Of a stretch of DNA of 64,000 nt, positions 2,420-64,000 are shown one piece after another. The first letter of the stretch is position 1. Each line of letters begins with the position of its first letter. The translations under genes were made by a program, and so were the position numbers. This DNA is from Acidimicrobiia bacterium. GTDB taxonomy: Bacteria; Actinomycetota; Acidimicrobiia; IMCC26256; PALSA-555. Under the pieces are notes generated by a model, which worked only from the letters and a program-made list of their open reading frames with translations, made no database searches and was not told where the DNA came from. Location: positions 7,286-71,285 of the forward strand of contig SHVJ01000001.1 of the NCBI GenBank assembly GCA_009694295.1, in the 5' to 3' direction.

Positions 2420-3470
2420 GTGTTTCGTCACTTTCGCAACATCTGTCTCGTCGCGCTCGCGATCGGATCGCTGGTCGGCTCGATCGCGGTGCCGGGGGGT
2501 GCCGCCCCGATCGACGACAAGCGGGCCCAGGCCGTCGCCCTCCAGGTCCAGATCACCGAGACCAACCAGACGCTCAGCGCACTCGGCGAGGAGTTCAACG
2601 GGGCGCAGCTCCGCCTCGACGAAGCCGAAGCCGCGCTCGCCGCGCTGCAAGTCCAGATCGACGCCACAAAGGCCGAGATCGCCCGCATCAAGGGCGTGCT
2701 CGCCGAGCGGGCCGCGGCGGTCTACAAGCGAGCCGCGTCGGGCGGCTCGACCGACGCGCTCGACATCGGCAACGCGCAAGAGTTCGCGAGTCGCGAGCAC
2801 TACGCATCAGCACAGGCCGACGACGACAACCGCCTCATCGACAACCTCAGACATCGCGAAGGATCAGCTTCGCGAGCAGCGCGGCACCGCGCGGACGATG
2901 CGCGACGCCGCGGCCACCGAGCACCAACGGCTCGCCGAGATGAAGACATCACTCGAAGCACTGTCGGCGCAGCAACAGCAATTGCTCGCACAGGTGCAAG
3001 GCGACGTCAAGCGGCTCATCCAAGAAGACCTCGAACGCAAGCAAGCCGAAGCAATCGCGATGGCGCACGGACGGTACGGCAACAACGTCGAGGCGTATCC
3101 CAACCTGCCGCCGCCTGGACCGTCCACCGCAATCGCGATCGCCTACGCATACCAGCAGATCGGCAAGCCGTACCTGTACGCCGGCATCGGCATCGATCGC
3201 TTCGACTGCTCAGGCCTCGTGATGATGGCCTTCCGATCGGCAGGCGTGTACCTCCCGCACTACTCCGGCGCGCAGTACCACATGCTCCCGCACTTACCGC
3301 TCGACGCGATGCAGCGCGGCGATCTTCTCTTCTGGGGTGGCGGTGGCAGCAGCCACGTCGCGATCCCTCTCGGCGACGGACAGATCATCGAGTCAGGCGG
3401 TACCGGTCACAACACGCACGTCGGACCGATCTGGGGTCATCCCTCAGGAGCAGCCCGCGTCACCCAGTAG
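2420..3470 (+). pseudogene. NlpC/P60 peptidoglycan endopeptidase with N-terminal coiled coil (RipA-like); reading frame broken near 2849-2852
   Basis: The signal peptide and coiled coil (QVQITETNQTLSALGEEFNGAQLRLDEAEAALAALQVQIDATKAEIARIKG ... NRLIDNL) are in the frame of ORF 2303..3490. The continuation (DIAKDQLREQRGTA ... YQQIGKPYLYAGIGIDRFDCSGLVMMAFRSAGVYLPHYSGAQY ... HVAI) is in the +1 frame of ORF 2499..3470. The switch lies inside AACCTCAGACATCGCG. Confidence 0.7.
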
Positions 3471-3502: not shown

Positions 3503-4435
3503 ATGCATGACTGCCCCGGTACCTGGCGTCGAACAACGATCGCTTTCGTCCTCGCGGGTGCACTTGCGCTCGGCGCACTCGTGGGACCCGTGGCCGCGGT
3601 GTCCACCAAGAAGAAGGCAGTGGTTGTGAAGCGCATCACGCTGACCCTGGTCGACGACAGCCGGCCAACCCCGGCGAACGGCGACTACGCCGGCGCACCC
3701 GACCGCACGCTCGAGACCGTGGTGTCGCTCCCGAAGGGCACGACCCGGAAGAAGCCACTGCCGCTCGTGTTGTTCGCCACCGGGATCGGGGGCACAGCCA
3801 CCAATTACGCCGACATGTACGACCACTGGGCGCGCGCCGGCTACATCGTGGCCGCCCCGTCGTTTCCACTCTCGAGCGAAGATTCGCCCGGCGGCACATC
3901 GGCCGCGGACCTCTCAAACCAGCCGGCCGACATGAGCTTCATCCTCGACGAGCTGCTCAGCCTGAACAGCGAACAAGGGTCAAAGCTGTTTGGGCTCATC
4001 GACGACGCCAGCCTCGGGGTGATCGGGAAGTCGCTCGGCGCGTTGACCGTGATGGATCTCATCTTCAATCCGACGTACCACGACGACCGGTTCGCAGCCG
4101 TCGTGATCTTGACGGGGCTCGCGACGGGCGGCGCTGACTTCAGCGCGTACGCCCCACCACTGCTGTTCGTCCACGGCGACGGCGACGAGACCGTGCCGTA
4201 CTCCAGCGGCCAAGATGCGTTCGCCAAGGCACAGTCACCCAAGTTCTTCGTGACGATCGCGGACGCGACGCATTCGAGCGCGTTCCACGGCGCGGACGAC
4301 CCGTCATCCACCGCGGTCGTGCGGAGCGTGACCGACTTCCTCGACAACTACCTCAAGGGCAAGAAGAACGCGCTGGCGAAGCTCGATGTGGACGGCAACG
4401 TCGCGGGCGTCGCGACGCTCGAGGCCAGCCCCTAG
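3503..4435 (+). CDS. Secreted alpha/beta hydrolase (dienelactone-hydrolase / PAF-acetylhydrolase-like)
   Basis: 310-aa ORF. Signal peptide RRTTIAFVLAGALALGALVGPVAAV and GKSLG nucleophile elbow, followed by GDGD and ATHSS segments. Confidence 0.8.
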   Translation: MHDCPGTWRRTTIAFVLAGALALGALVGPVAAVSTKKKAVVVKRITLTLVDDSRPTPANGDYAGAPDRTLETVVSLPKGTTRKKPLPLVLFATGIGGTATNYADMYDHWARAGYIVAAPSFPLSSEDSPGGTSAADLSNQPADMSFILDELLSLNSEQGSKLFGLIDDASLGVIGKSLGALTVMDLIFNPTYHDDRFAAVVILTGLATGGADFSAYAPPLLFVHGDGDETVPYSSGQDAFAKAQSPKFFVTIADATHSSAFHGADDPSSTAVVRSVTDFLDNYLKGKKNALAKLDVDGNVAGVATLEASP

Positions 4436-5262
4436 GTACTGACGTCGGCAAGCTCGCCACGGGCAGCGGCCGTGAACGGGAAACGCAGCTGGCGGAGATA
4501 GTCGTACTGGGGGACGGGTGTCGTCGTGCCGAACGCCGCGGGACGCTTGCCCTTGGGCATGTATGCCGTGCCGAAGATCTTGTCAACGACCGGGAGGCCA
4601 AAGTTCTTGTCGCGCGCCTCTTCATCGAGCGCATGGTGCCAGTGGTGCCACTCGGGCGTGTTGATCACCCAGCGCACGACCGGGAAGCGCAGTCGCACGT
4701 TCGCGTGCTGGAAGAGTGCGAGCAGGGTCACGAACACGGCGACGCCGGCGAACGCGCCGGCGTCGTAGCCCAGCACGAAGAGCGGCAGCACGGTCATTGC
4801 TTGCGTGAAGGCCGAGTCGATCGGGTGGAGTCGACCTGACGCGACCCAGTCCATCTGCTCGATGCTGTGGTGCACGGCGTGGAAACGCCAGAGGAACGGA
4901 ACCTGGTGCGTGAGTCGGTGGCCCCAATAGCTCCCTAGGAACACGAGCACGACCGCGAGCGGGATTGCCACTTCCGGAGCCAGCATGCTCTCCACGTCGT
5001 AGGCACGTACCCAAAGCAACGGGAGCGCGGCCGCTACGACCAGCACGATCGTGGCTGCCGTGACGAACAGGTTGTTCACCAGCAGGTGCGTCAGATCGGT
5101 GAGCAAGCCGCGGCGGAATACGCGCTGCGGGCGCAACGCGAACAGCTTCTCGATCGGCACGAACACCAGGAACAGGGCCGCGATGGCCACGACCGCGTTG
5201 GCGCGCACGAAGAGCGCGACGATGAGGGCAACTGCGAAGATGAGTCCGCTTCGTTTGGTCAC
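4432..5262 (-). CDS. Fatty-acid hydroxylase / sterol desaturase superfamily membrane protein
   Basis: His boxes HRLTH, HAVHH and WHHWHH with several TM segments. Preferred start is GTG 5262, preceded by GGGGGA. The ORF-track start at 5313 is a TTG inside the palindrome. Confidence 0.8.
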   Translation of the reverse strand: MTKRSGLIFAVALIVALFVRANAVVAIAALFLVFVPIEKLFALRPQRVFRRGLLTDLTHLLVNNLFVTAATIVLVVAAALPLLWVRAYDVESMLAPEVAIPLAVVLVFLGSYWGHRLTHQVPFLWRFHAVHHSIEQMDWVASGRLHPIDSAFTQAMTVLPLFVLGYDAGAFAGVAVFVTLLALFQHANVRLRFPVVRWVINTPEWHHWHHALDEEARDKNFGLPVVDKIFGTAYMPKGKRPAAFGTTTPVPQYDYLRQLRFPFTAAARGELADVST

Positions 5263-5267
5263 CGTTC

Positions 5268-5320
5268 CCCCTATTTGGTCACTCGACAACACATGTTGTT
5301 GTTCATTGACCAAATAGGGG
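5268..5320. promoter_or_regulatory. Perfect 14-bp inverted repeat CCCCTATTTGGTCA / TGACCAAATAGGGG (operator-like), 25-bp spacer
   Basis: Arms at 5268-5281 and 5307-5320. The spacer holds a nested palindrome ACAACA-CA-TGTTGT. A third direct TTTGGTCAC copy sits at 5254-5262. The 13-mer ATTTGGTCACTCG recurs at 62606-62594 on the minus strand. Confidence 0.6.
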
Positions 5321-5358
5321 ACTTGTCACGGCGGTACGAGGGGAGTGTGAGGGATCGG

Positions 5359-5364
5359 TAAGGT
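5359..5364 (+). promoter_or_regulatory. -10-like TANNNT box (TAAGGT), 6 nt before GTG 5371
   Basis: TAAGGT-CCGGCC-GTG. Confidence 0.45.
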
Positions 5365-5370
5365 CCGGCC

Positions 5371-5703
5371 GTGCTCATCAGCTTCGACATCGACGGCACC
5401 ATGGAGTTCGGGGAGCCGCCAGGGCCGGTTCCCGTGTCGTTCGTGCGTGAGCTCGCCGACGACGGTCACGTCATCGGGTCGGCGTCCGACCGCACCCGCA
5501 GCGATCAGTCACAGCTGTGGGAGAAGCACGGCATCGCCGTGGCGTTTGTTGGTGGGAAGCACCACCTTCACGAGGTGCGCGAGCAGTTCCCGGCGGAACG
5601 CCACGTGCACATCGGCGACACGCATGTCGACGAGCACTACGCGCTGCTCGCCGGTTTCGAGTTCTGCCAGCTCGACGACTGGGCGACGATCGCCCAACCC
5701 TGA
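5371..5703 (+). CDS. Small HAD-superfamily hydrolase-like protein
   Basis: 110 aa. N-terminal MLISFDIDGTMEF (HAD motif I, DxDGT), then SASDR and IGDTHVD segments. Confidence 0.7.
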   Translation: MLISFDIDGTMEFGEPPGPVPVSFVRELADDGHVIGSASDRTRSDQSQLWEKHGIAVAFVGGKHHLHEVREQFPAERHVHIGDTHVDEHYALLAGFEFCQLDDWATIAQP

Positions 5704-10243: not shown

Positions 10244-10282
10244 GTTCGTTCGCTGAGGCCGGAGGCCTTTCAGCGAACGAAC
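10244..10282. terminator. Palindromic hairpin element (copy Y) downstream of the SRPBCC gene
   Basis: GTTCGTTCGCTGA (10244-10256) pairs perfectly with TCAGCGAACGAAC (10270-10282) around a GGCC-GGA-GGCC core. Confidence 0.55.
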
Positions 10283-58542: not shown

Positions 58543-59978
58543 TTCTGGTCGTCGACGTGGGGACGTCGTCGGTTCGTGGTGTGGTGGTCGACGGCGATGC
58601 GCGGATCGTGGCGGAGCACCGGCGGCCGTTGTTGCCGTCGTCGCCGGCCCCCGGACTCGTGGAGTTCGACGCCGCCGCGATGGCCGACGTCGTGCTCGAC
58701 GTGGCGCGCGCCGCTATCGATGAAGTCGGCGCCGTCGCCGCGGTGGGCGTCGCCAACCAGCGCGGCTCGGCCATCGTGTGGGATCGCGCCACCGGCGAGC
58801 CACTTGGACCGGGTATCGGGTGGCAGGACCTCCGCACCGTCGTGCGCTGCCTCGAGCTCCGCGGTTCCGATGTGCGCGTTGGGCCAAACCACTCGGCAAC
58901 CAAGTTCGAGACGCTGCTCGACGCGGCCGATCCCGACCGCAGTCGCGATCTGTGCGTGGGCACCGTCGACTCGTGGGTTGCGTGGACCCTTTCGGGCGGC
59001 GCGGTACACGTGACCGATGCGTCGAACGCGCTCATCACCGGCATGCGCACCGCGACCAACGAGACCTGGGACGCGTCCGTACTGGAGATCCTGCGCATCC
59101 CGGAACCTGCGTTGCCCACGGTCGTCGACTCGTCCGGCGAGGTGGGCGAGGCGAGTGCTTTGCCGGGCGCGCCGCCTATCACCGGATTGCTGGGCGATCA
59201 GCAAGCGTCGCTGCTCGGCCAGGGCTGCGTGCACCACTGCGACGCCAAGATCACCTTTGGTACCGGCGGAATGCTCGATGTCGTGCTCGGCCCCGATCGA
59301 CCGAAGTTCGATCTCCGCGGCGATGCTGGGACGTTCCCGATCGTGACGCGCCGCGTCGACGGCACCGACCTGTGGGGTCTCGAAGCGGTGATGCTGTCGG
59401 CCGGCACGAACATCGAGTGGCTGCGTGACGATCTCGGACTCGTGAGCTCGGCGGGGGAGACCGACGCGATCGCCGCAAGCTGCGCCGACACCGGCGACGT
59501 TTGGTACGTACCCGCACTCCTCGGTCTCGGCACGCCCCGCTGGGACTTCGGAGCCCGCGGCACATTGGTCGGTCTCACACGCGGCACCGAGCGCGCCCAC
59601 GTGGTGCGCGCCGTGCTCGAAGGAGTCGCGCATCGAGGCGTCGATCTGATCGAAGCGGCCGAAGCCGATAGTGGCTGTCGCATCGAGGTCGTGCGGGTCG
59701 ACGGCGGGATGACGGCCAACACCACATTTCTTCAAGCGCTAGCCGACGCGGCACAACGTCCGGTGGAAGTCGCCCCCGTCCGCGAGGCCACCGCACTCGG
59801 CGCCGCGTTCGCGGCCGGTCCCGCCGTCGGACGCTGGGTCGACGACGACGCCGTCGCAGCAACATGGAGCCCCGGCGCGCGCGTCGATCCCCAGCGGTCC
59901 CTCGACCGCGATCGTTGGCGCGACGCGGTCGATCGCGCGGAGCACTGGCTCCCCGACCTTTCGGCGATCGACTTCTAA
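58539..59978 (+). CDS. FGGY-family carbohydrate kinase, glycerol-kinase-like
   Basis: MILVVDVGTSSVRGVVVD ... VGVANQRGSAIVWDRATGEPLGPGIGWQDLRT. ATG 58539 overlaps the upstream stop as ATGA. Confidence 0.85.
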   Translation: MILVVDVGTSSVRGVVVDGDARIVAEHRRPLLPSSPAPGLVEFDAAAMADVVLDVARAAIDEVGAVAAVGVANQRGSAIVWDRATGEPLGPGIGWQDLRTVVRCLELRGSDVRVGPNHSATKFETLLDAADPDRSRDLCVGTVDSWVAWTLSGGAVHVTDASNALITGMRTATNETWDASVLEILRIPEPALPTVVDSSGEVGEASALPGAPPITGLLGDQQASLLGQGCVHHCDAKITFGTGGMLDVVLGPDRPKFDLRGDAGTFPIVTRRVDGTDLWGLEAVMLSAGTNIEWLRDDLGLVSSAGETDAIAASCADTGDVWYVPALLGLGTPRWDFGARGTLVGLTRGTERAHVVRAVLEGVAHRGVDLIEAAEADSGCRIEVVRVDGGMTANTTFLQALADAAQRPVEVAPVREATALGAAFAAGPAVGRWVDDDAVAATWSPGARVDPQRSLDRDRWRDAVDRAEHWLPDLSAIDF

Positions 59979-60012
59979 GTCACTCGGCTCCCGTCACTCG
60001 GCCGTCACCGGG
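59979..60012. repeat. Degenerate tandem repeat GTCACTCGGCTCCC / GTCACTCGGCC / GTCACCGGG
   Basis: It starts immediately after the kinase stop (TAA 59976-59978). Confidence 0.7.
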
Positions 60013-60168
60013 TTGCACAAGCCGTGTCCCGCCCTGCAGTCCGTCCCGGACGCGCGGCGATGTCGGATCCCCCTCCACGCTCCTCGTCGCGGTGGCCGGG
60101 CGGTGGGCTGCGGCGGTGCACCCCGTGCCGCACCGTCGCAGCCCTCAGTTCTGCAGGAAGCTCGCCGG

Positions 60169-60174
60169 TACGCT
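60169..60174 (+). promoter_or_regulatory. -10-like TANNNT box (TACGCT), 7 nt before GTG 60182
   Basis: TACGCT-GCCGCTC-GTG. Confidence 0.45.
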
Positions 60175-60181
60175 GCCGCTC

Positions 60182-61456
60182 GTGAGCCTCCGTCCGGCGT
60201 CGATCCACATCGATGACCTCGCCGACCCGCAGTTCACGCCGCAGATCGCCGAGATGATGCAGGCGGTCGAGCCGATCGCGGCCGCGCTCGACTTCGCACC
60301 CGATGCGCTCATCGTTCAAGCGCAGGCCGACACCGGACTCGACCACTTCGGCGACGAGGCCTTCCGCGAACCACTTGCCGTCATCCTCGGAGCGCTCGAC
60401 GCGCAACCGGAACGCTCAGCGATGGGACGGGTGAGCACGCACGCTCAGGTGTCGCAGCTCTTGCGAAACCGCCTGCTCGTCGAGGATCTCGTGCGCCAGC
60501 ACCCGGAGATCCTCGACGAGAAGATCGAACGGCCGATCGTGATCGCCGGTCAGCCGCGTACCGGCACGACACACCTGCACAACCTCATCGCGTCCGACCC
60601 CGCCATGCGGTCATTGCCTTACTGGGAAAGCCTCGAACCCGTGCTGCCAGCCGACGAGCGGGCCATGGTGGCCGCCGGTGGCGAAGACCCGCGCCGCGAG
60701 CGCACCGGTGCCGGACTCGGGATCCTCGACGAGGCGATGCCGAACTTCAAGCGCATGCACGAGATGACGGTCGATCACGTGCACGAAGAGATCCAACTGC
60801 TCGCGATCGACTTCTCCACGATGCTCTTCGAGACGATGGGCGTGCTGCCCGCGTGGAAGGAGTGGTACGTCACGCACGACCAGACACCCCATTACGAGTA
60901 CCTGCGCATGGTGCTCCAAGTGCTCCAGTGGCAGCGAAGCGTCGGCAGCCGATGGGTGCTCAAGTCGCCGCAGCATCTCGAGCAGTTTCGGGCCCTGGTG
61001 CGTATCTTCCCCGACGCCACGTTTGTGGTCCCGCACCGCGATCCCGTGGCGGTGATCGCATCGAACGCCACGATGCTGGCGTACACCGCGCGTCTCAGCC
61101 ACTCGATCGTCGACCCTGTGTACATCGGTCAGTACTGGTCGGATCGCATCGAGGAGATGCTGCGGGCGGGCATGCGCGACCACGATCTGCTTCCGTCCGA
61201 TCGCACGATCGACGTGGCCTTCGACGAGTTCATGGCCGACGACGTAGCCATGGTCGAACGCATCTACGAGGTCGCCGAGCAGCCGTTCACCCCCGACGTG
61301 CGAGCGGCTATGGACGCATTCATGGTGGAGCACCCTCGCGGACGTCACGGAGGAGTGCTCTACGACCTCCAAGGTGATTTCGACATCGACCCCGCCGAAC
61401 GCCGAGAGGCAATGCGGGACTACACCGACCGCTTCAACGTGACCTTGGAGAGCTAG
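60182..61456 (+). CDS. PAPS-dependent sulfotransferase family protein (paralogue 2)
   Basis: IVIAGQPRTGTTHLHNLI 5'-PSB loop, collinear with 10750..11955. The 5' part of ORF 59864 overlaps the kinase gene and the intergenic region. Confidence 0.8.
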   Translation: MSLRPASIHIDDLADPQFTPQIAEMMQAVEPIAAALDFAPDALIVQAQADTGLDHFGDEAFREPLAVILGALDAQPERSAMGRVSTHAQVSQLLRNRLLVEDLVRQHPEILDEKIERPIVIAGQPRTGTTHLHNLIASDPAMRSLPYWESLEPVLPADERAMVAAGGEDPRRERTGAGLGILDEAMPNFKRMHEMTVDHVHEEIQLLAIDFSTMLFETMGVLPAWKEWYVTHDQTPHYEYLRMVLQVLQWQRSVGSRWVLKSPQHLEQFRALVRIFPDATFVVPHRDPVAVIASNATMLAYTARLSHSIVDPVYIGQYWSDRIEEMLRAGMRDHDLLPSDRTIDVAFDEFMADDVAMVERIYEVAEQPFTPDVRAAMDAFMVEHPRGRHGGVLYDLQGDFDIDPAERREAMRDYTDRFNVTLES

Positions 61457-62550
61457 CGGATCTTCGGAACGTCCTTGAGCTTGACGACCTTGGTCTCCGG
61501 TCGATCGGGTGTGTCGCTCGGGTAAAACCAGCGGAACCAGATACGCCCGCGCGGGTGGCCCGCGGTCGACAGCCAGTTGGGGTGACCCGGGTCAGTCTCC
61601 GACACCACGAGTGTCCACGAACCGTCGGCTTCGTACGTCGTCTGCGCGCCGTTGATCGTGACGCGCTCGTAGTCGTAGTTGTACGTGTGCATGAACTGGT
61701 TCCAGAGGCAGCAGTTCCAGAACGCGCACTCTGGTGACCGACCCGTGATCACGAGCGCTTCGTCGGGCGCGAGGTCGAAGCTCCCCATCGCGTACGCGGC
61801 ATCGCCCGCGGCCCAACCGAACGTGACCTTCTGCACCGGGTACGGCTCGTCGATGTGGTTGGGCTCACCGAGACCGAGCGGCACCATCTGCGCCTGATCC
61901 TTGATCCAGGTGAGCGCAGCTCGGAATCGGCGCGCGAGATCGGCGTCGTTCTCGCGATACGTGGACGGCGGGTCGATCGACTGGATGTGCCACGTGCAGC
62001 GCTTCCCTCGGAATGGATCCTTCAGGTAGTCGCGCGTGATGGCAGCCACCGCGTCGTCATCGAGCTGGATGAACGGTCCCTTCCACTCAGCCGGCCGCTC
62101 GCGCGCCATCCAGAACTCGAACGTGCCGTCGGGCCCGATGTCGAGGTCATCGCGATCGTTCACGCTCCCGACGATGCGTTCGGAGTAGTGACCGTCACGC
62201 GGGCCGCCATAGACGGTGAGCGAGAGGTACGCCGCGTCGCCGATCTGGCCCGTGACGCGGTACACGACCGCGGGATCCATCGGCGCGAACTGGTAGAACG
62301 CGTCGGCGTTGTCGCCACCCCACTTCTTGTAGTGACCGACGATGTCGACGAACCGCGGGTTGGCCGGGTCACCCCAGACCTGCGTGTCGAGCGCGACCTG
62401 GAGGATCGAGAAGATCCACTTGTATCCCTCGAGCACTTGCTGGTCGTCGCCCAGCGCGTTCGGTCCCTCGAAGAACCGCTCGTCGAGCGTCTTCAGCGTG
62501 TCGATGAGCTCGTGGACCACAACGGTCGTCTCGTACTGCTTGTCGGCCAT
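61453..62550 (-). CDS. DUF1214-type protein of unknown function
   Basis: MADKQYETT ... EGYKWIFSILQVAL ... WGGDNADAFYQFAPMD ... The family call is from memory. GAGAAGGA before ATG 62550. Confidence 0.65.
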   Translation of the reverse strand: MADKQYETTVVVHELIDTLKTLDERFFEGPNALGDDQQVLEGYKWIFSILQVALDTQVWGDPANPRFVDIVGHYKKWGGDNADAFYQFAPMDPAVVYRVTGQIGDAAYLSLTVYGGPRDGHYSERIVGSVNDRDDLDIGPDGTFEFWMARERPAEWKGPFIQLDDDAVAAITRDYLKDPFRGKRCTWHIQSIDPPSTYRENDADLARRFRAALTWIKDQAQMVPLGLGEPNHIDEPYPVQKVTFGWAAGDAAYAMGSFDLAPDEALVITGRSPECAFWNCCLWNQFMHTYNYDYERVTINGAQTTYEADGSWTLVVSETDPGHPNWLSTAGHPRGRIWFRWFYPSDTPDRPETKVVKLKDVPKIR

Positions 62551-62565
62551 GGCCCGATCCTTCTC

Positions 62566-62605
62566 TTTGGTCACTGGGTAGCGCCAGCTTGACCGAGTGA
62601 CCAAA
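62566..62605. promoter_or_regulatory. Perfect 10-bp inverted repeat TTTGGTCACT / AGTGACCAAA (operator-like), 20-bp spacer
   Basis: Arms at 62566-62575 and 62596-62605, between the MOSC stop and the DUF1214 ribosome-binding site. The minus strand reads ATTTGGTCACTCG, identical to 5273-5285. Confidence 0.6.
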
Positions 62606-63088
62606 TCAGCCCGGCGAGATCACATCGCCGATCTGGATGGTGCCGTCGTCGAGGATCTCGGCGCGTAGGCCACCGCGGTCGAGGAGCGCCGGGCGTACCC
62701 CAGGGCGGGTCAGCTCTTCGAGGTACACGCACGGGTGGGAGAGGTCGAAGCCTCGGAAGCGCACACCGCCCACGACGAACTCCTGGCCCACCAGGTCGTT
62801 GAGGCGCACTCCCTCGGTCACGATGTTGCGACGCGTCTCCTGCTCGGTGAGCTCGATCCCGTGCTCCGCGACCGCGCCCTGCACGGCTTCGCGCTCGATC
62901 AGCGTGACGGCGCGCTGCGCGTTCTCGATGCGGACGCCTGAGTACTTGCCCGCTTCGTTGGCGTACCGATCGCCTTCGAGGCCCTTGCCGGCGAGCGCAC
63001 GAACTTCGTCGCGCGACTCCATCGGTCTGCCTTCACCCGGCGCGACGTAGATCCCGACGACTCGTCCCTCGAACATGTCGGCGGCCAT
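62606..63088 (-). CDS. MOSC-domain protein
   Basis: GLEGDRY ... RAVTLIEREA ... RRNIVTEGVRLNDLVGQEFVVGGVRFRG ... PCVYLE. Start at ATG 63088 or 63076. Confidence 0.8.
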   Translation of the reverse strand: MAADMFEGRVVGIYVAPGEGRPMESRDEVRALAGKGLEGDRYANEAGKYSGVRIENAQRAVTLIEREAVQGAVAEHGIELTEQETRRNIVTEGVRLNDLVGQEFVVGGVRFRGFDLSHPCVYLEELTRPGVRPALLDRGGLRAEILDDGTIQIGDVISPG

Positions 63089-63105
63089 GTCCCCAGTGTG
63101 TCTCG

Positions 63106-63657
63106 TCAGGACCAAATGGGGAGCGCAATTCGCCCCCAGGCGTGATCGCGCACGCACGGACCTTCGTACTCGATGCGGTCGTCGTCGATGATGATCTCGC
63201 CGTGGATCGTGCCCGCCTGCGAGTAACGCGTGCCGTTCGCAACGTCGATCTCGGTGGCCTCCGCGGAGAACTCCCACTCAAGGTCGAGACCGACGGGGAT
63301 GCGCTCACCCAGGTCGTCGTCGCGCGTGTCAACGCTCAGACCAAACGCTTCCAGCGAGATGCTCCAGTGCTCGAACGGCGTCTCACACGTCAACGACGCC
63401 CACAACCCGTCGCCGCGCAGATCGAGCGAGTCGTCACGCTTCGGCGGCGCCACATCCTCGTCGCGCACGATGACGATGCCGATCTCGCGACCGACGATCT
63501 GGGTCCAGAACCAACATCTGCGAATCTCGGGCACGCGTGTGAGCCGGACCAGACCTCCGACACCGTCGGTACTCGCGAGGTCGAAGCCCCACGTCTCGAG
63601 CCAGCCCTCGTCGGTGACGCCTGGATGCGGCCGGTCATCGTTGGGTTTCAACGCCAT
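63106..63657 (-). CDS. Hypothetical protein (183 aa, beta-rich, acidic)
   Basis: Non-repetitive ORF MALKPNDDRPHPGVTDEGWLETWGFDLAS... No family recognised. Confidence 0.55.
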   Translation of the reverse strand: MALKPNDDRPHPGVTDEGWLETWGFDLASTDGVGGLVRLTRVPEIRRCWFWTQIVGREIGIVIVRDEDVAPPKRDDSLDLRGDGLWASLTCETPFEHWSISLEAFGLSVDTRDDDLGERIPVGLDLEWEFSAEATEIDVANGTRYSQAGTIHGEIIIDDDRIEYEGPCVRDHAWGRIALPIWS

Positions 63658-63662
63658 CCCGC

Positions 63663-63668
63663 TACATT
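63663..63668 (+). promoter_or_regulatory. -10-like TANNNT box (TACATT), 7 nt before ATG 63676
   Basis: TACATT-GTCAGCA-ATG. Confidence 0.45.
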
Positions 63669-63675
63669 GTCAGCA

Positions 63676-64000
63676 ATGGGCGGAAAGACCGAATCGTGGC
63701 GAGCGCCCGCGGGAAGATCGTTCACCCTCAACGCCGATGGCGTAGAGATCCACGCCGACGAATGGCTCCCGGCGGCCCCGATTGCCGATGCTGCGCCCGT
63801 GCTGCTCGTCCACGGGCTGGGCGCGAACACGCTCTCCTGGGAGCCGATCGGGCAGCCCCTGGCCGATGCGCTCGGCACCACCGTCACCGCCATCGACCTG
63901 ATCGGCTTCGGCCGCACCCGCGTGCCCGAACGCACAGCGTCGATTGCGACGAACCGCCAGCTCGTGACCGCTGTCCTCGAAGCGCTCGGACCGTCGACCG
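63676..64000 (+). CDS. Alpha/beta hydrolase, N-terminal fragment (runs off window end)
   Basis: My own translation: MGGKTESWRAPAGRSFTLNADGVEIHADEWLPAAPIADAAPVLLVHGLGANTLSWEPIGQPLADALG... It is open to the window end and is not in the ORF track. Confidence 0.7.
   Translation, partial: MGGKTESWRAPAGRSFTLNADGVEIHADEWLPAAPIADAAPVLLVHGLGANTLSWEPIGQPLADALGTTVTAIDLIGFGRTRVPERTASIATNRQLVTAVLEALGPST

Follow-up and report, generated by a model that had tools for sequence, protein, structure and literature searches.

What a long palindrome is doing between two divergent genes, and why its arms recur at a second site, is the question raised by this stretch of DNA from an Acidimicrobiia bacterium. The palindrome, here locus 1, lies between an FA_hydroxylase gene and a DUF7124 gene; its arm reappears between a MOSC and a DUF1214 gene, here locus 2. 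A sequence-only reading of the window, by which we mean the whole 64,000-nucleotide stretch (G+C ~66%), had taken such sites for binding sites of one dimeric regulator at the promoters of these four genes. We find that the recurrence of the motif is real and not a product of chance, and that the promoter regulon is not the best-supported explanation for it. The account we favor, tentatively and at somewhat less than even confidence, is that locus 1 and locus 2 are members of a small family of palindromic hairpins, and that these act on mRNA in cis. From the source genome, the analysis covered the window and 3.2 kb beyond its end (~67 kb). The features on which the argument turns are these, SD denoting a Shine-Dalgarno sequence:

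5268-5320, between the divergent FA_hydroxylase (minus strand) and DUF7124 (plus strand) genes: the locus 1 palindrome, 53 bp
5266-5271, minus strand: SD-like GGGGGA of the hydroxylase gene, 3 nt before its GTG; the 3' arm of locus 1 runs into it
5254-5262, minus strand: third copy of TTTGGTCAC, reading GTGACCAAA, which is the hydroxylase GTG start plus Thr and Lys codons
62566-62605, minus strand: the locus 2 hairpin, in which TTTGGTCACT (62566-62575) pairs with AGTGACCAAA (62596-62605), the arms 20 nt apart
62606-62608, minus strand: MOSC stop TGA, which abuts the 5' arm; the canonical 13-mer begins with its A (62606)
62548-62565, minus strand: DUF1214 SD GAGAAGGA (62565-62558) and ATG (62550-62548), following immediately on the hairpin's 3' side

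The perfect 14-nt inverted repeat claimed for locus 1 is present, with CCCCTATTTGGTCA at 5268-5281 and TGACCAAATAGGGG at 5307-5320, and the 13-mer ATTTGGTCACTCG at 5273-5285 recurs on the minus strand at 62606-62594. The estimate that the 8-mer should occur less than once by chance was also sound: ATTTGGTC is expected 0.70 times in the window and found four times, a number reached in 0 of 100 shuffles. TTTGGTCAC is found four times against 0.175 expected, the copies around locus 1 lying at 5254-5262 and 5274-5282, and TTTGGTCA five times against 0.49 expected (shuffle maximum 3 in 200); the enrichment of these 8/9-mers is 10- to 20-fold. Across 390 kb of related Acidimicrobiia loci, TTTGGTCA occurs 0.49 times per 64 kb, the chance level. 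An exact 13-mer repeat is weak evidence by itself, because the window holds 515 such pairs versus ~292 in shuffled sequence. One-mismatch and position-weight-matrix scans revealed no sites in the window beyond the known arms and none in the 3.2 kb past its end.

Two of the six copies originally counted are explained by coding. The third copy of TTTGGTCAC does sit on the hydroxylase start, as had been noticed, but there it encodes the start codon and Thr-Lys, and it is kept in the relative L001 as GTGACCAAG (V-T-K). A further recurrence, GACCAAATGGGG, is likewise present at 63110-63121, but it encodes a conserved protein C terminus and is probably coincidental:

63109-63122, minus strand: locus 3, TCCCCATTTGGTCC, encoding the C-terminal P-I-W-S of a DUF7065-like open reading frame (ORF), with the TGA (63108-63106) directly after

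The ortholog in L011 reads CCCCATCTGGTCGTAA here, the same amino acids through different synonymous bases. Given the conserved PIWS-stop and these synonymous changes, we rejected locus 3 as a family member. The sites might also have no function in common, in which case independent intergenic hairpins would owe a common 9-13-mer to chance, to local gene conversion or to inverted duplication, with the coding coincidences (5254-5262 and 63109-63122) inflating the count. The coding explanation of those copies and the abundance of exact 13-mer pairs fit this view. Even without the coding copies, however, four TTTGGTCA arms remain in two hairpins, against ~0.5 expected for the window, and with the comparisons given below this leads us to consider it improbable that nothing is shared.

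Locus 2 is a 10-nt inverted repeat of which only one arm had been seen before. On the minus strand it runs from the MOSC TGA through the arm ATTTGGTCACTCG, the interior, the arm AGTGACCAAA, the SD GAGAAGGA and a 7-nt spacer to the DUF1214 ATG; its fold comprises a 10-bp stem and inner pairs (stems GGT/ACC and AGC/GCT). By its sequence context, it is an intercistronic element between same-strand genes and not a promoter site. GTGACCAAAGAGAAGGA of locus 2 and GTGACCAAATAGGGGGA of locus 1 are alike at 14 of 17 positions, and the 3' arm of each locus passes into a similar SD, GTGACCAAAKAGRRGGA. When mismatches are allowed, locus 1 has 24-nt arms (5268-5291 and 5297-5320) that are 88% complementary around a 5-nt center, with the inner stem ACAACA/TGTTGT. 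In the sense of the hydroxylase mRNA (minus strand) it reads CCCCUAUUUGGUCA-AUGA-ACAACA-ACAUG-UGUUGU-CGAG-UGACCAAAUAGGGG, then GAACG, then GUG ACC AAA. The predicted energy of its RNA fold is -39.3 kcal/mol (z -4.95) for the minus strand, compared with -37.4 kcal/mol (z -3.6) for the plus strand. Were the entire palindrome transcribed, four of the G residues of the SD (5268-5271) would, by sequence and by fold, pair with the CCCC at 5317-5320.

These structures sit poorly with a single dimeric regulator at the promoters of four genes. The motif is, as had been proposed, non-random and common to two loci that lie at gene boundaries, but two of the three supposed loci are something other than promoters: locus 2 fills the space from a stop codon to an SD, and locus 3 is coding. 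The 8-mers are 24-26 bp apart (32-34 bp center to center), an arrangement unlike that of a simple dimer site, and the spacers, while unrelated between elements, are self-complementary, which an operator does not need. A consensus scan detected no sigma-70-like promoter at locus 1 or locus 2. A scan for intrinsic terminators found none at the palindromes, whose 3' flanks (GAGAAGG, AGGGGGA and GAAGAAA) contain no U-tract. The whole window is without a match to Rfam at gathering thresholds, and in sensitive mode both loci gave only noise (E above 5).

The palindromes are real and not assembly artifacts, since an independent Logan assembly of run SRR8561390 reproduces them: contig L192 matches 59899-64000 at 100% identity, locus 2 included, and locus 1 is recovered from 5273 onward in contig L193, the end of which falls within the palindrome. 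Two Logan contigs terminate in the locus 1 palindrome or its ortholog, L193 beginning at its position 1 (window 5273) with ATTTGGTCAC and L176 beginning at its position 1 with TGACCAAATAGG; short-read assemblies seem to break at this structure.

Genes in the neighborhood of the two loci, with their Pfam assignments where these apply, are the following:

4432-5262, minus strand: FA_hydroxylase gene (Pfam), with a GTG start at 5262-5260
5371-5703, plus strand: DUF7124 gene (Pfam), encoding a 110-aa protein with a DxDGT start
61453-62550, minus strand: DUF1214 gene (Pfam)
62606-63088, minus strand: MOSC gene (Pfam)
63106-63657, minus strand: DUF7065-like ORF, upstream of MOSC

The 276-aa hydroxylase product, read from the GTG at 5262, is identical over its full length (100%) to a deposited protein from an Acidimicrobiia metagenome-assembled genome.

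Relatives show how these elements come and go. A genome-collection scan with DUF1214 yielded 46 orthologous loci (best match 92%), many of which have MOSC directly upstream of DUF1214. The hairpin is present in 0 of the 46, and hydroxylase orthologs at ≤82% identity are without the locus 1 palindrome; operators of a dimeric transcription factor would be expected to persist upstream of orthologs. In most DUF1214 orthologs (L010-L055) a TAGCGT, TAGCCT or TAGAAC box stands 8 nt before the ATG, without an SD, a leaderless-type layout. The window gene has lost this TAG-type box and carries the SD GAGAAGGA in its place, so that the mode of translation initiation of DUF1214 appears, as far as sequence can tell, to have switched in the window lineage. 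In the near relative GCA_945889545.1, locus 2 (L011) reads GGGC-TGACCAAAGAGAA at the stop codon, which equals the window sequence minus 35 bp with the 3' arm kept. The same genome preserves synteny at locus 1 (L001) but is missing a 40-bp block comprising the loop and 3' arm, and retains TTTGGT...GTGACCAAG. A third hydroxylase locus, that of L176 (87% identity), still has the right arm together with the SD, with TGACCAAATAGGAGGA before the GTG, and its contig begins exactly there. The hydroxylases of the window, L001 and L176 form an unsplit trichotomy (88.8, 86.7 and 87.2% identity). The simplest history these sequences suggest is a palindrome in the common ancestor of the three, partly deleted in GCA_945889545.1. 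That this sister genome lost most of both hairpins and kept the genes agrees with hairpins that share no function, whereas the conservation of the right arm and SD in L176, at a distance where neutral sites should be saturated, argues against it. L011, L017, L019 and L020 carry Acidimicrobiia-type orthologs (76-90% identity) under the titles "Bifidobacterium breve" or "uncultured Bifidobacteriaceae", and these Bifidobacterium labels look wrong.

We searched for copies outside the genome with the pattern ATTTGGTCACTCG-N15-30-TGACCAAA (21 specified bases) in 241 million metagenome records. The scan returned five matches (L177, L178, L179, L180 and L181); for palindromic sequences, a pattern of this strength should give a few matches by chance. 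L178 (Ga0190265_10354682; GC 0.68) holds a perfect copy, CCCCATATTTGGTCACTCG...CGAGTGACCAAAT, with 15-nt arms. The element reads AACCCCATATTTGGTCACTCGCC-TGGGCCATAGGCCC-GGCGAGTGACCAAAT, and its interior is itself palindromic, giving a wider palindrome of ~20-nt arms around a 3-nt center (inner stems GGGCC/GGCCC and CC/GG) with a predicted fold of -49.5 kcal/mol (z -7.0). It has ~20 nt in common with locus 1, beyond what the pattern required, and shares the CCCC-TA flank, an extent of likeness that hairpins of independent origin would leave unexplained. The element stands 12 nt past the stop codon of an MBL-fold gene whose closest homologs are Acidimicrobiia proteins. Relatives of this gene have different downstream DNA without the element; homology stops just before it, where the inserted DNA begins. 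The downstream ORF, 48 nt away and cut by the contig end, is a 38-aa fragment whose only Pfam match is AbiEi_4, below threshold (E 0.066); it has no homologs in a sequence search and no tblastn match in plasmids.

The remaining matches are less alike. The L180 match is situated in the promoter of an operon for a DUF6088/AbiEii toxin-antitoxin pair, where GTGACCAAA falls between the -35 and -10 boxes. The architecture differs, TTTGGTCAC being at the inner end of 31-nt arms, and L180 may be one of the few chance matches. At L180 1075-1165 we noted a 31-nt-arm palindrome as the promoter of DUF6088 (AbiEi-like)/AbiEii, with a near-consensus TTGCTA-N16-TATAAT and several TGACCAAA boxes; this palindrome is probably the antitoxin's own operator. 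The L177 match abuts the ATG of a small ORF resembling a helix-turn-helix protein. L179 and L181, one coding and the other low in GC, were treated as chance. A possible diverged copy at L191 3734-3779 (CGTTTGGGCAG...AAGTGACCAAACG, 20 nt past a Peptidase_S8 stop) was set aside for want of a significant fold; it belongs to a 4-Mb Acidimicrobiia-like genome, has half-sites spaced 34 bp apart, and could be a decayed family member. In viral contigs, a 16-base hairpin pattern gave at least 120 matches, attributed to chance, and a stricter 20-base palindrome gave none. blastn of the locus 1 and L178 palindromes against plasmids returned noise only, and a literature search with the motif strings returned primers and unrelated sequences only. 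Among the relatives of the L178 MBL gene, L182 and L183 have another downstream palindrome, TGGTGTGCCATTTGTT...AACAAACGGCATACCA, at ~3190-3235, and L184 has a sequence at ~3255-3275, ACGAACATCTGTTCGA, that resembles an actinobacterial LexA box.

The conservation of a 13-20-nt arm across loci and lineages is strict enough to call for either recent copying or a sequence-specific protein. If the latter, the elements would be operators of a trans-acting DNA-binding protein encoded outside the window, which would recognize the ~13-20-bp arm (CCCC)nTATTTGGTCACTCG with two protomers on two inverted arms in the manner of AbiEi. It would act on the hydroxylase and DUF7124 genes at locus 1 and serve as a roadblock or internal operator before DUF1214 at locus 2. 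This refinement of the sequence-only proposal is the main alternative to the hairpin elements, and we regard it as possible but doubtful. The extended arm is identical at separate loci and in the second lineage represented by L178, and the half-sites keep a narrow spacing (32-34 bp center to center) despite unrelated spacers. The arm-gap-arm layout of locus 1 (24-nt arms, 5-nt gap) and L178 (~20-nt arms, 3-nt center) matches that of AbiEi/Rv2827c sites (PMC7319586), and two of the five external matches adjoin AbiEi-like genes (L178, AbiEi_4 E 0.066; L180, DUF6088/AbiEii). Pfam scans of all window ORFs found no recognizable DNA-binding regulator, as the sequence-only reading had supposed and as an operator bound by a protein from elsewhere would allow. 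The same scans, however, place neither an AbiEi nor an AbiEii gene in the window, and no other regulator gene stands near its sites. An AbiEi-type operator at an abiEi-abiEii promoter is found only at the external L180 and is weakly suggested for L178, whereas the window sites are at no recognizable promoter, locus 2 lying between stop codon and SD, and are not conserved at orthologous loci. The characterized Rv2827c repeat, CACTTGAGTTTGGAAACGGG, differs in sequence; the AbiEi_4 match is below threshold, and the link to AbiEi could not be extended from it; L180, with its different architecture, may be a chance match; and the self-complementary, non-conserved interiors are left unexplained.

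Locus 1 has features of its own that bear on transcription and translation:

5359-5371, plus strand: DUF7124 start region, TAAGGT, 6 nt, GTG, a leaderless-type -10/start arrangement
5271-5306, minus strand: putative 11-codon ORF MNNNMCCRVTK-stop within the palindrome, its TAG stop overlapping the hydroxylase SD

The DUF7124 arrangement is shared by relatives, with TAAAGT or TATCCT, and its spacing points to a transcript without a leader, which would put the palindrome at about -51 to -103. On the hydroxylase side, the window (5323-5351) and relatives including L001, L004, L007 and L009 have the boxes (C/A)TCACA(CT), N17, T(G/C)ACA(T/A), 8-9 nt, GTTGGWTGAT. The boxes are common to five relatives, their spacing is promoter-like with an atypical -10, and the GTTGGWTGAT box aligns with the 5' arm of the window. 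Were they a promoter, the palindrome would form the first ~50 nt of the hydroxylase 5' untranslated region. As a promoter call, (C/A)TCACA-N17-T(G/C)ACA(T/A) was rejected: suggestive in five relatives, it is degraded in L186 and L191, and no promoter emerged from the consensus scan.

A translational switch specific to the hydroxylase could be built from these parts. The 5' arm would have two alternative partners, the 3' arm, in which case the SD is sequestered, and the start-codon copy GUGACCAAA. Ribosomes translating MNNNMCCRVTK would open the hairpin, so that hydroxylase expression became coupled to their traffic, and the hairpin of locus 2 would be either unrelated or a secondary copy. The three complementary boxes (5254-5262, 5274-5281 and 5307-5314) are in place, so the start-codon copy could serve as an alternative partner of the 5' arm; the TAG of the upstream ORF shares bases with the SD and stands 8 nt ahead of the GTG, and a TGA in that frame overlaps the start codon itself. 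The locus 1 fold is very stable, and L001 and L009 each have a hairpin of their own across the start codon (z -4.6 for L001, with 76 nt of context, and z -3.2 for L009). We nevertheless think such a switch very unlikely. The upstream ORF has neither an SD nor a convincing leaderless promoter, and the upstream ORFs of relatives are heterogeneous and not convincingly conserved. The z score of L001 falls to -1.8 in a 101-nt context, and four of seven lineages show no significant structure; conserved RNA structure around the hydroxylase start, being significant in only three of the seven and sensitive to window length, was rejected as evidence. At about -39 kcal/mol the stem would be too stable to melt at physiological temperature, and the same arm at locus 2 and in L178 would go unexplained.

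We therefore return to a family of hairpin elements, and propose that it consists of 40-53-bp palindromes restricted to some Acidimicrobiia lineages. The outer arm is conserved over ~13-20 nt, with the consensus (CCCC)nTATTTGGTCACTCG, and the interiors differ between copies while each is self-complementary. Palindromy over the full length with unrelated interiors favors a folded strand or an inverted duplication over a protein contact surface. The elements sit in intergenic spacers, most likely transcribed ones; of the three clear elements, two (locus 2 and L178) lie 0-12 nt after a stop codon and between same-strand genes. Hairpins are lost or gained among close relatives while the genes stay, and the L178 element marks the edge of inserted DNA; such evolution is typical of dispensable inserted elements. 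The lack of a recognizable regulator in the window and of a sigma-70-like promoter at either locus also speaks for this account. Rather than serving as promoter operators, the elements would most probably work in cis as stable stem-loops in the RNA, shortly before ribosome-binding sites, where they would protect mRNA ends and/or control how accessible the SD is. The 5'-arm CCCC of locus 1 would pair with the GGGG of its SD. The shared stem may reflect common descent through copying or mobilization in a REP- or MITE-like manner (repetitive extragenic palindromic and miniature inverted-repeat transposable elements, respectively), which would imply past mobility, and a protein that recognizes it may be encoded elsewhere in the genome.

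Several observations weigh against this account. There are just two clear copies in ~67 kb of the source genome and very few strict-pattern matches in the 241 million metagenome records, and the rarity of the strict pattern means that a high-copy REP-type family is not demonstrated. No transposase is in view and there is no GTAG/CGTC tag. Target-site duplications are lacking: no direct repeat flanks locus 1 (GTTC...ACTT) or L178, and locus 2 has only an ambiguous TG(A). The interiors are not homologous, unlike simple copies of one transposable element. The locus 2 fold is not exceptional compared with shuffles (z -1.3, 86-nt context); hairpins near the hydroxylase start reach significance in only three of seven lineages, which establishes no conserved RNA structure. 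Transcription of the whole palindrome at locus 1, between divergent genes, is only presumed, and strict conservation of a 13-20-nt arm across lineages would suit a protein-binding site equally well.

Other palindromes occur in the window. On the minus strand, 10244-10282 is a perfect 13-nt inverted repeat (GTTCGTTCGCTGA...TCAGCGAACGAAC) with a palindromic center and no U-tract, 1 nt after the TAG stop of a Polyketide_cyc2 gene and ~30 nt before an SDR gene. A perfect 15-nt inverted repeat at 2317-2366 (GTCTTGGCGTCAGAA...TTCTGACGCCAAGAC, interior CCACCG/CGGTGG) stands upstream of an Abhydrolase_10 gene and is followed by GGAGG. Both are unrelated to the family in sequence and equivalent in position (after a stop, or hairpin then SD-like sequence). 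Their positions favor elements of a hairpin type over a promoter operator, though unrelated long palindromes in similar positions are also what one would expect if the hairpins shared no function. A third, at 60476-60520, is a perfect 15-nt inverted repeat (CTCGTCGAGGATCTC...GAGATCCTCGACGAG) within the Sulfotransfer_3 coding region.

The elements match no curated family among those tested. A bolder proposal, which we consider unlikely, is that they represent an undescribed class of sequence-tagged palindromic insertions in Acidimicrobiia, with an enzyme or regulator of their own that binds hairpins or palindromes. There might be a link to toxin-antitoxin cassettes of the AbiEi type, and the elements would land between a stop codon and the next gene with their own ribosome-binding site; at locus 2 such an insertion would have converted DUF1214 from an ancestral leaderless gene (TAGCCT promoter) to an SD-led, operon-coupled one. 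If the elements are mobile or copied hairpins, the class Acidimicrobiia, of which almost all knowledge comes from metagenomes, would join the groups with REP-like intergenic palindromes, and the elements would show translation starts being rewired from leaderless to SD-led. If they are operators, they would provide the first candidate regulon motif for the group, tying a membrane lipid hydroxylase to MOSC/DUF1214. Whichever reading is true, the practical value is modest for now.

Four known systems invite comparison. Integron attC sites resemble the present elements in their conserved outer inverted repeats, their variable self-complementary center and their location directly after the preceding stop codon; in L178 the element coincides with the junction to an inserted gene of toxin-antitoxin type. 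They differ in that the arms here (ATTTGGTCAC...GTGACCAAAT) have no RYYYAAC/GTTRRRY core and Pfam scans found no integron integrase in the window. MOSC and DUF1214 are not cassettes, because they are syntenic in dozens of genomes without the element. AbiEi operators are closer in geometry. AbiEi and Rv2827c bind 23-bp inverted repeats 3 or 13 bp apart, one monomer per repeat, in a 50-60-bp palindromic region (PabiE of S. agalactiae and Prv2827c of M. tuberculosis; PMC7319586). Locus 1, with its 24-nt arms and 5-nt gap, is similar, and two external matches adjoin AbiEi-like genes; the window sites, in contrast, have no AbiEi or toxin gene and are not at a promoter, and their repeat sequence is unlike the characterized ones. 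The AbiEi link of the present elements rests on a sub-threshold Pfam match and one possibly chance match.

Hairpins that lack a U-tract and follow stop codons in high-GC Actinobacteria offer another parallel. Termination by mycobacterial RNA polymerase requires a U-tract, and mycobacterial hairpins lacking one do not terminate transcription in vitro but are suggested to stabilize RNA, possibly in the manner of REP elements (PMC3993855). Locus 2, L178 and the palindrome at 10244-10282 likewise begin 0-12 nt after a stop codon and have no U-tract; given the requirement of the mycobacterial polymerase, the present hairpins are more likely RNA-stabilizing or processing structures. Such hairpins are normally idiosyncratic in sequence, whereas the present stem is shared, and a terminator would not be expected at locus 1, flanked as it is by divergent genes.

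REP and REPIN sequences are mobilized by RAYT transposases and reach tens to hundreds of copies per genome. Here, the copy number is apparently low (two clear in ~67 kb), and no RAYT gene was seen in that DNA. REP families are defined by GTAG or CGTC tags, and a survey of them reports no Actinobacteria (PMC3733652). The flanks of the present elements (CCCCT/A, GGCTG/A and CCCAT/A) carry neither tag, so the elements are not members of a REP family; their arms, at 14-24 nt, also exceed the usual 5-13 bp of REP, and their interiors are unrelated. REP elements are short extragenic palindromes, often downstream of coding regions or between genes of an operon, and are thought to stabilize mRNA (PMC3733652, PMC3337134, PMC3993855). 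The elements described here resemble them in being extragenic palindromes with a recurrent conserved stem, plausibly transcribed, whose presence, absence and decay vary among related genomes.

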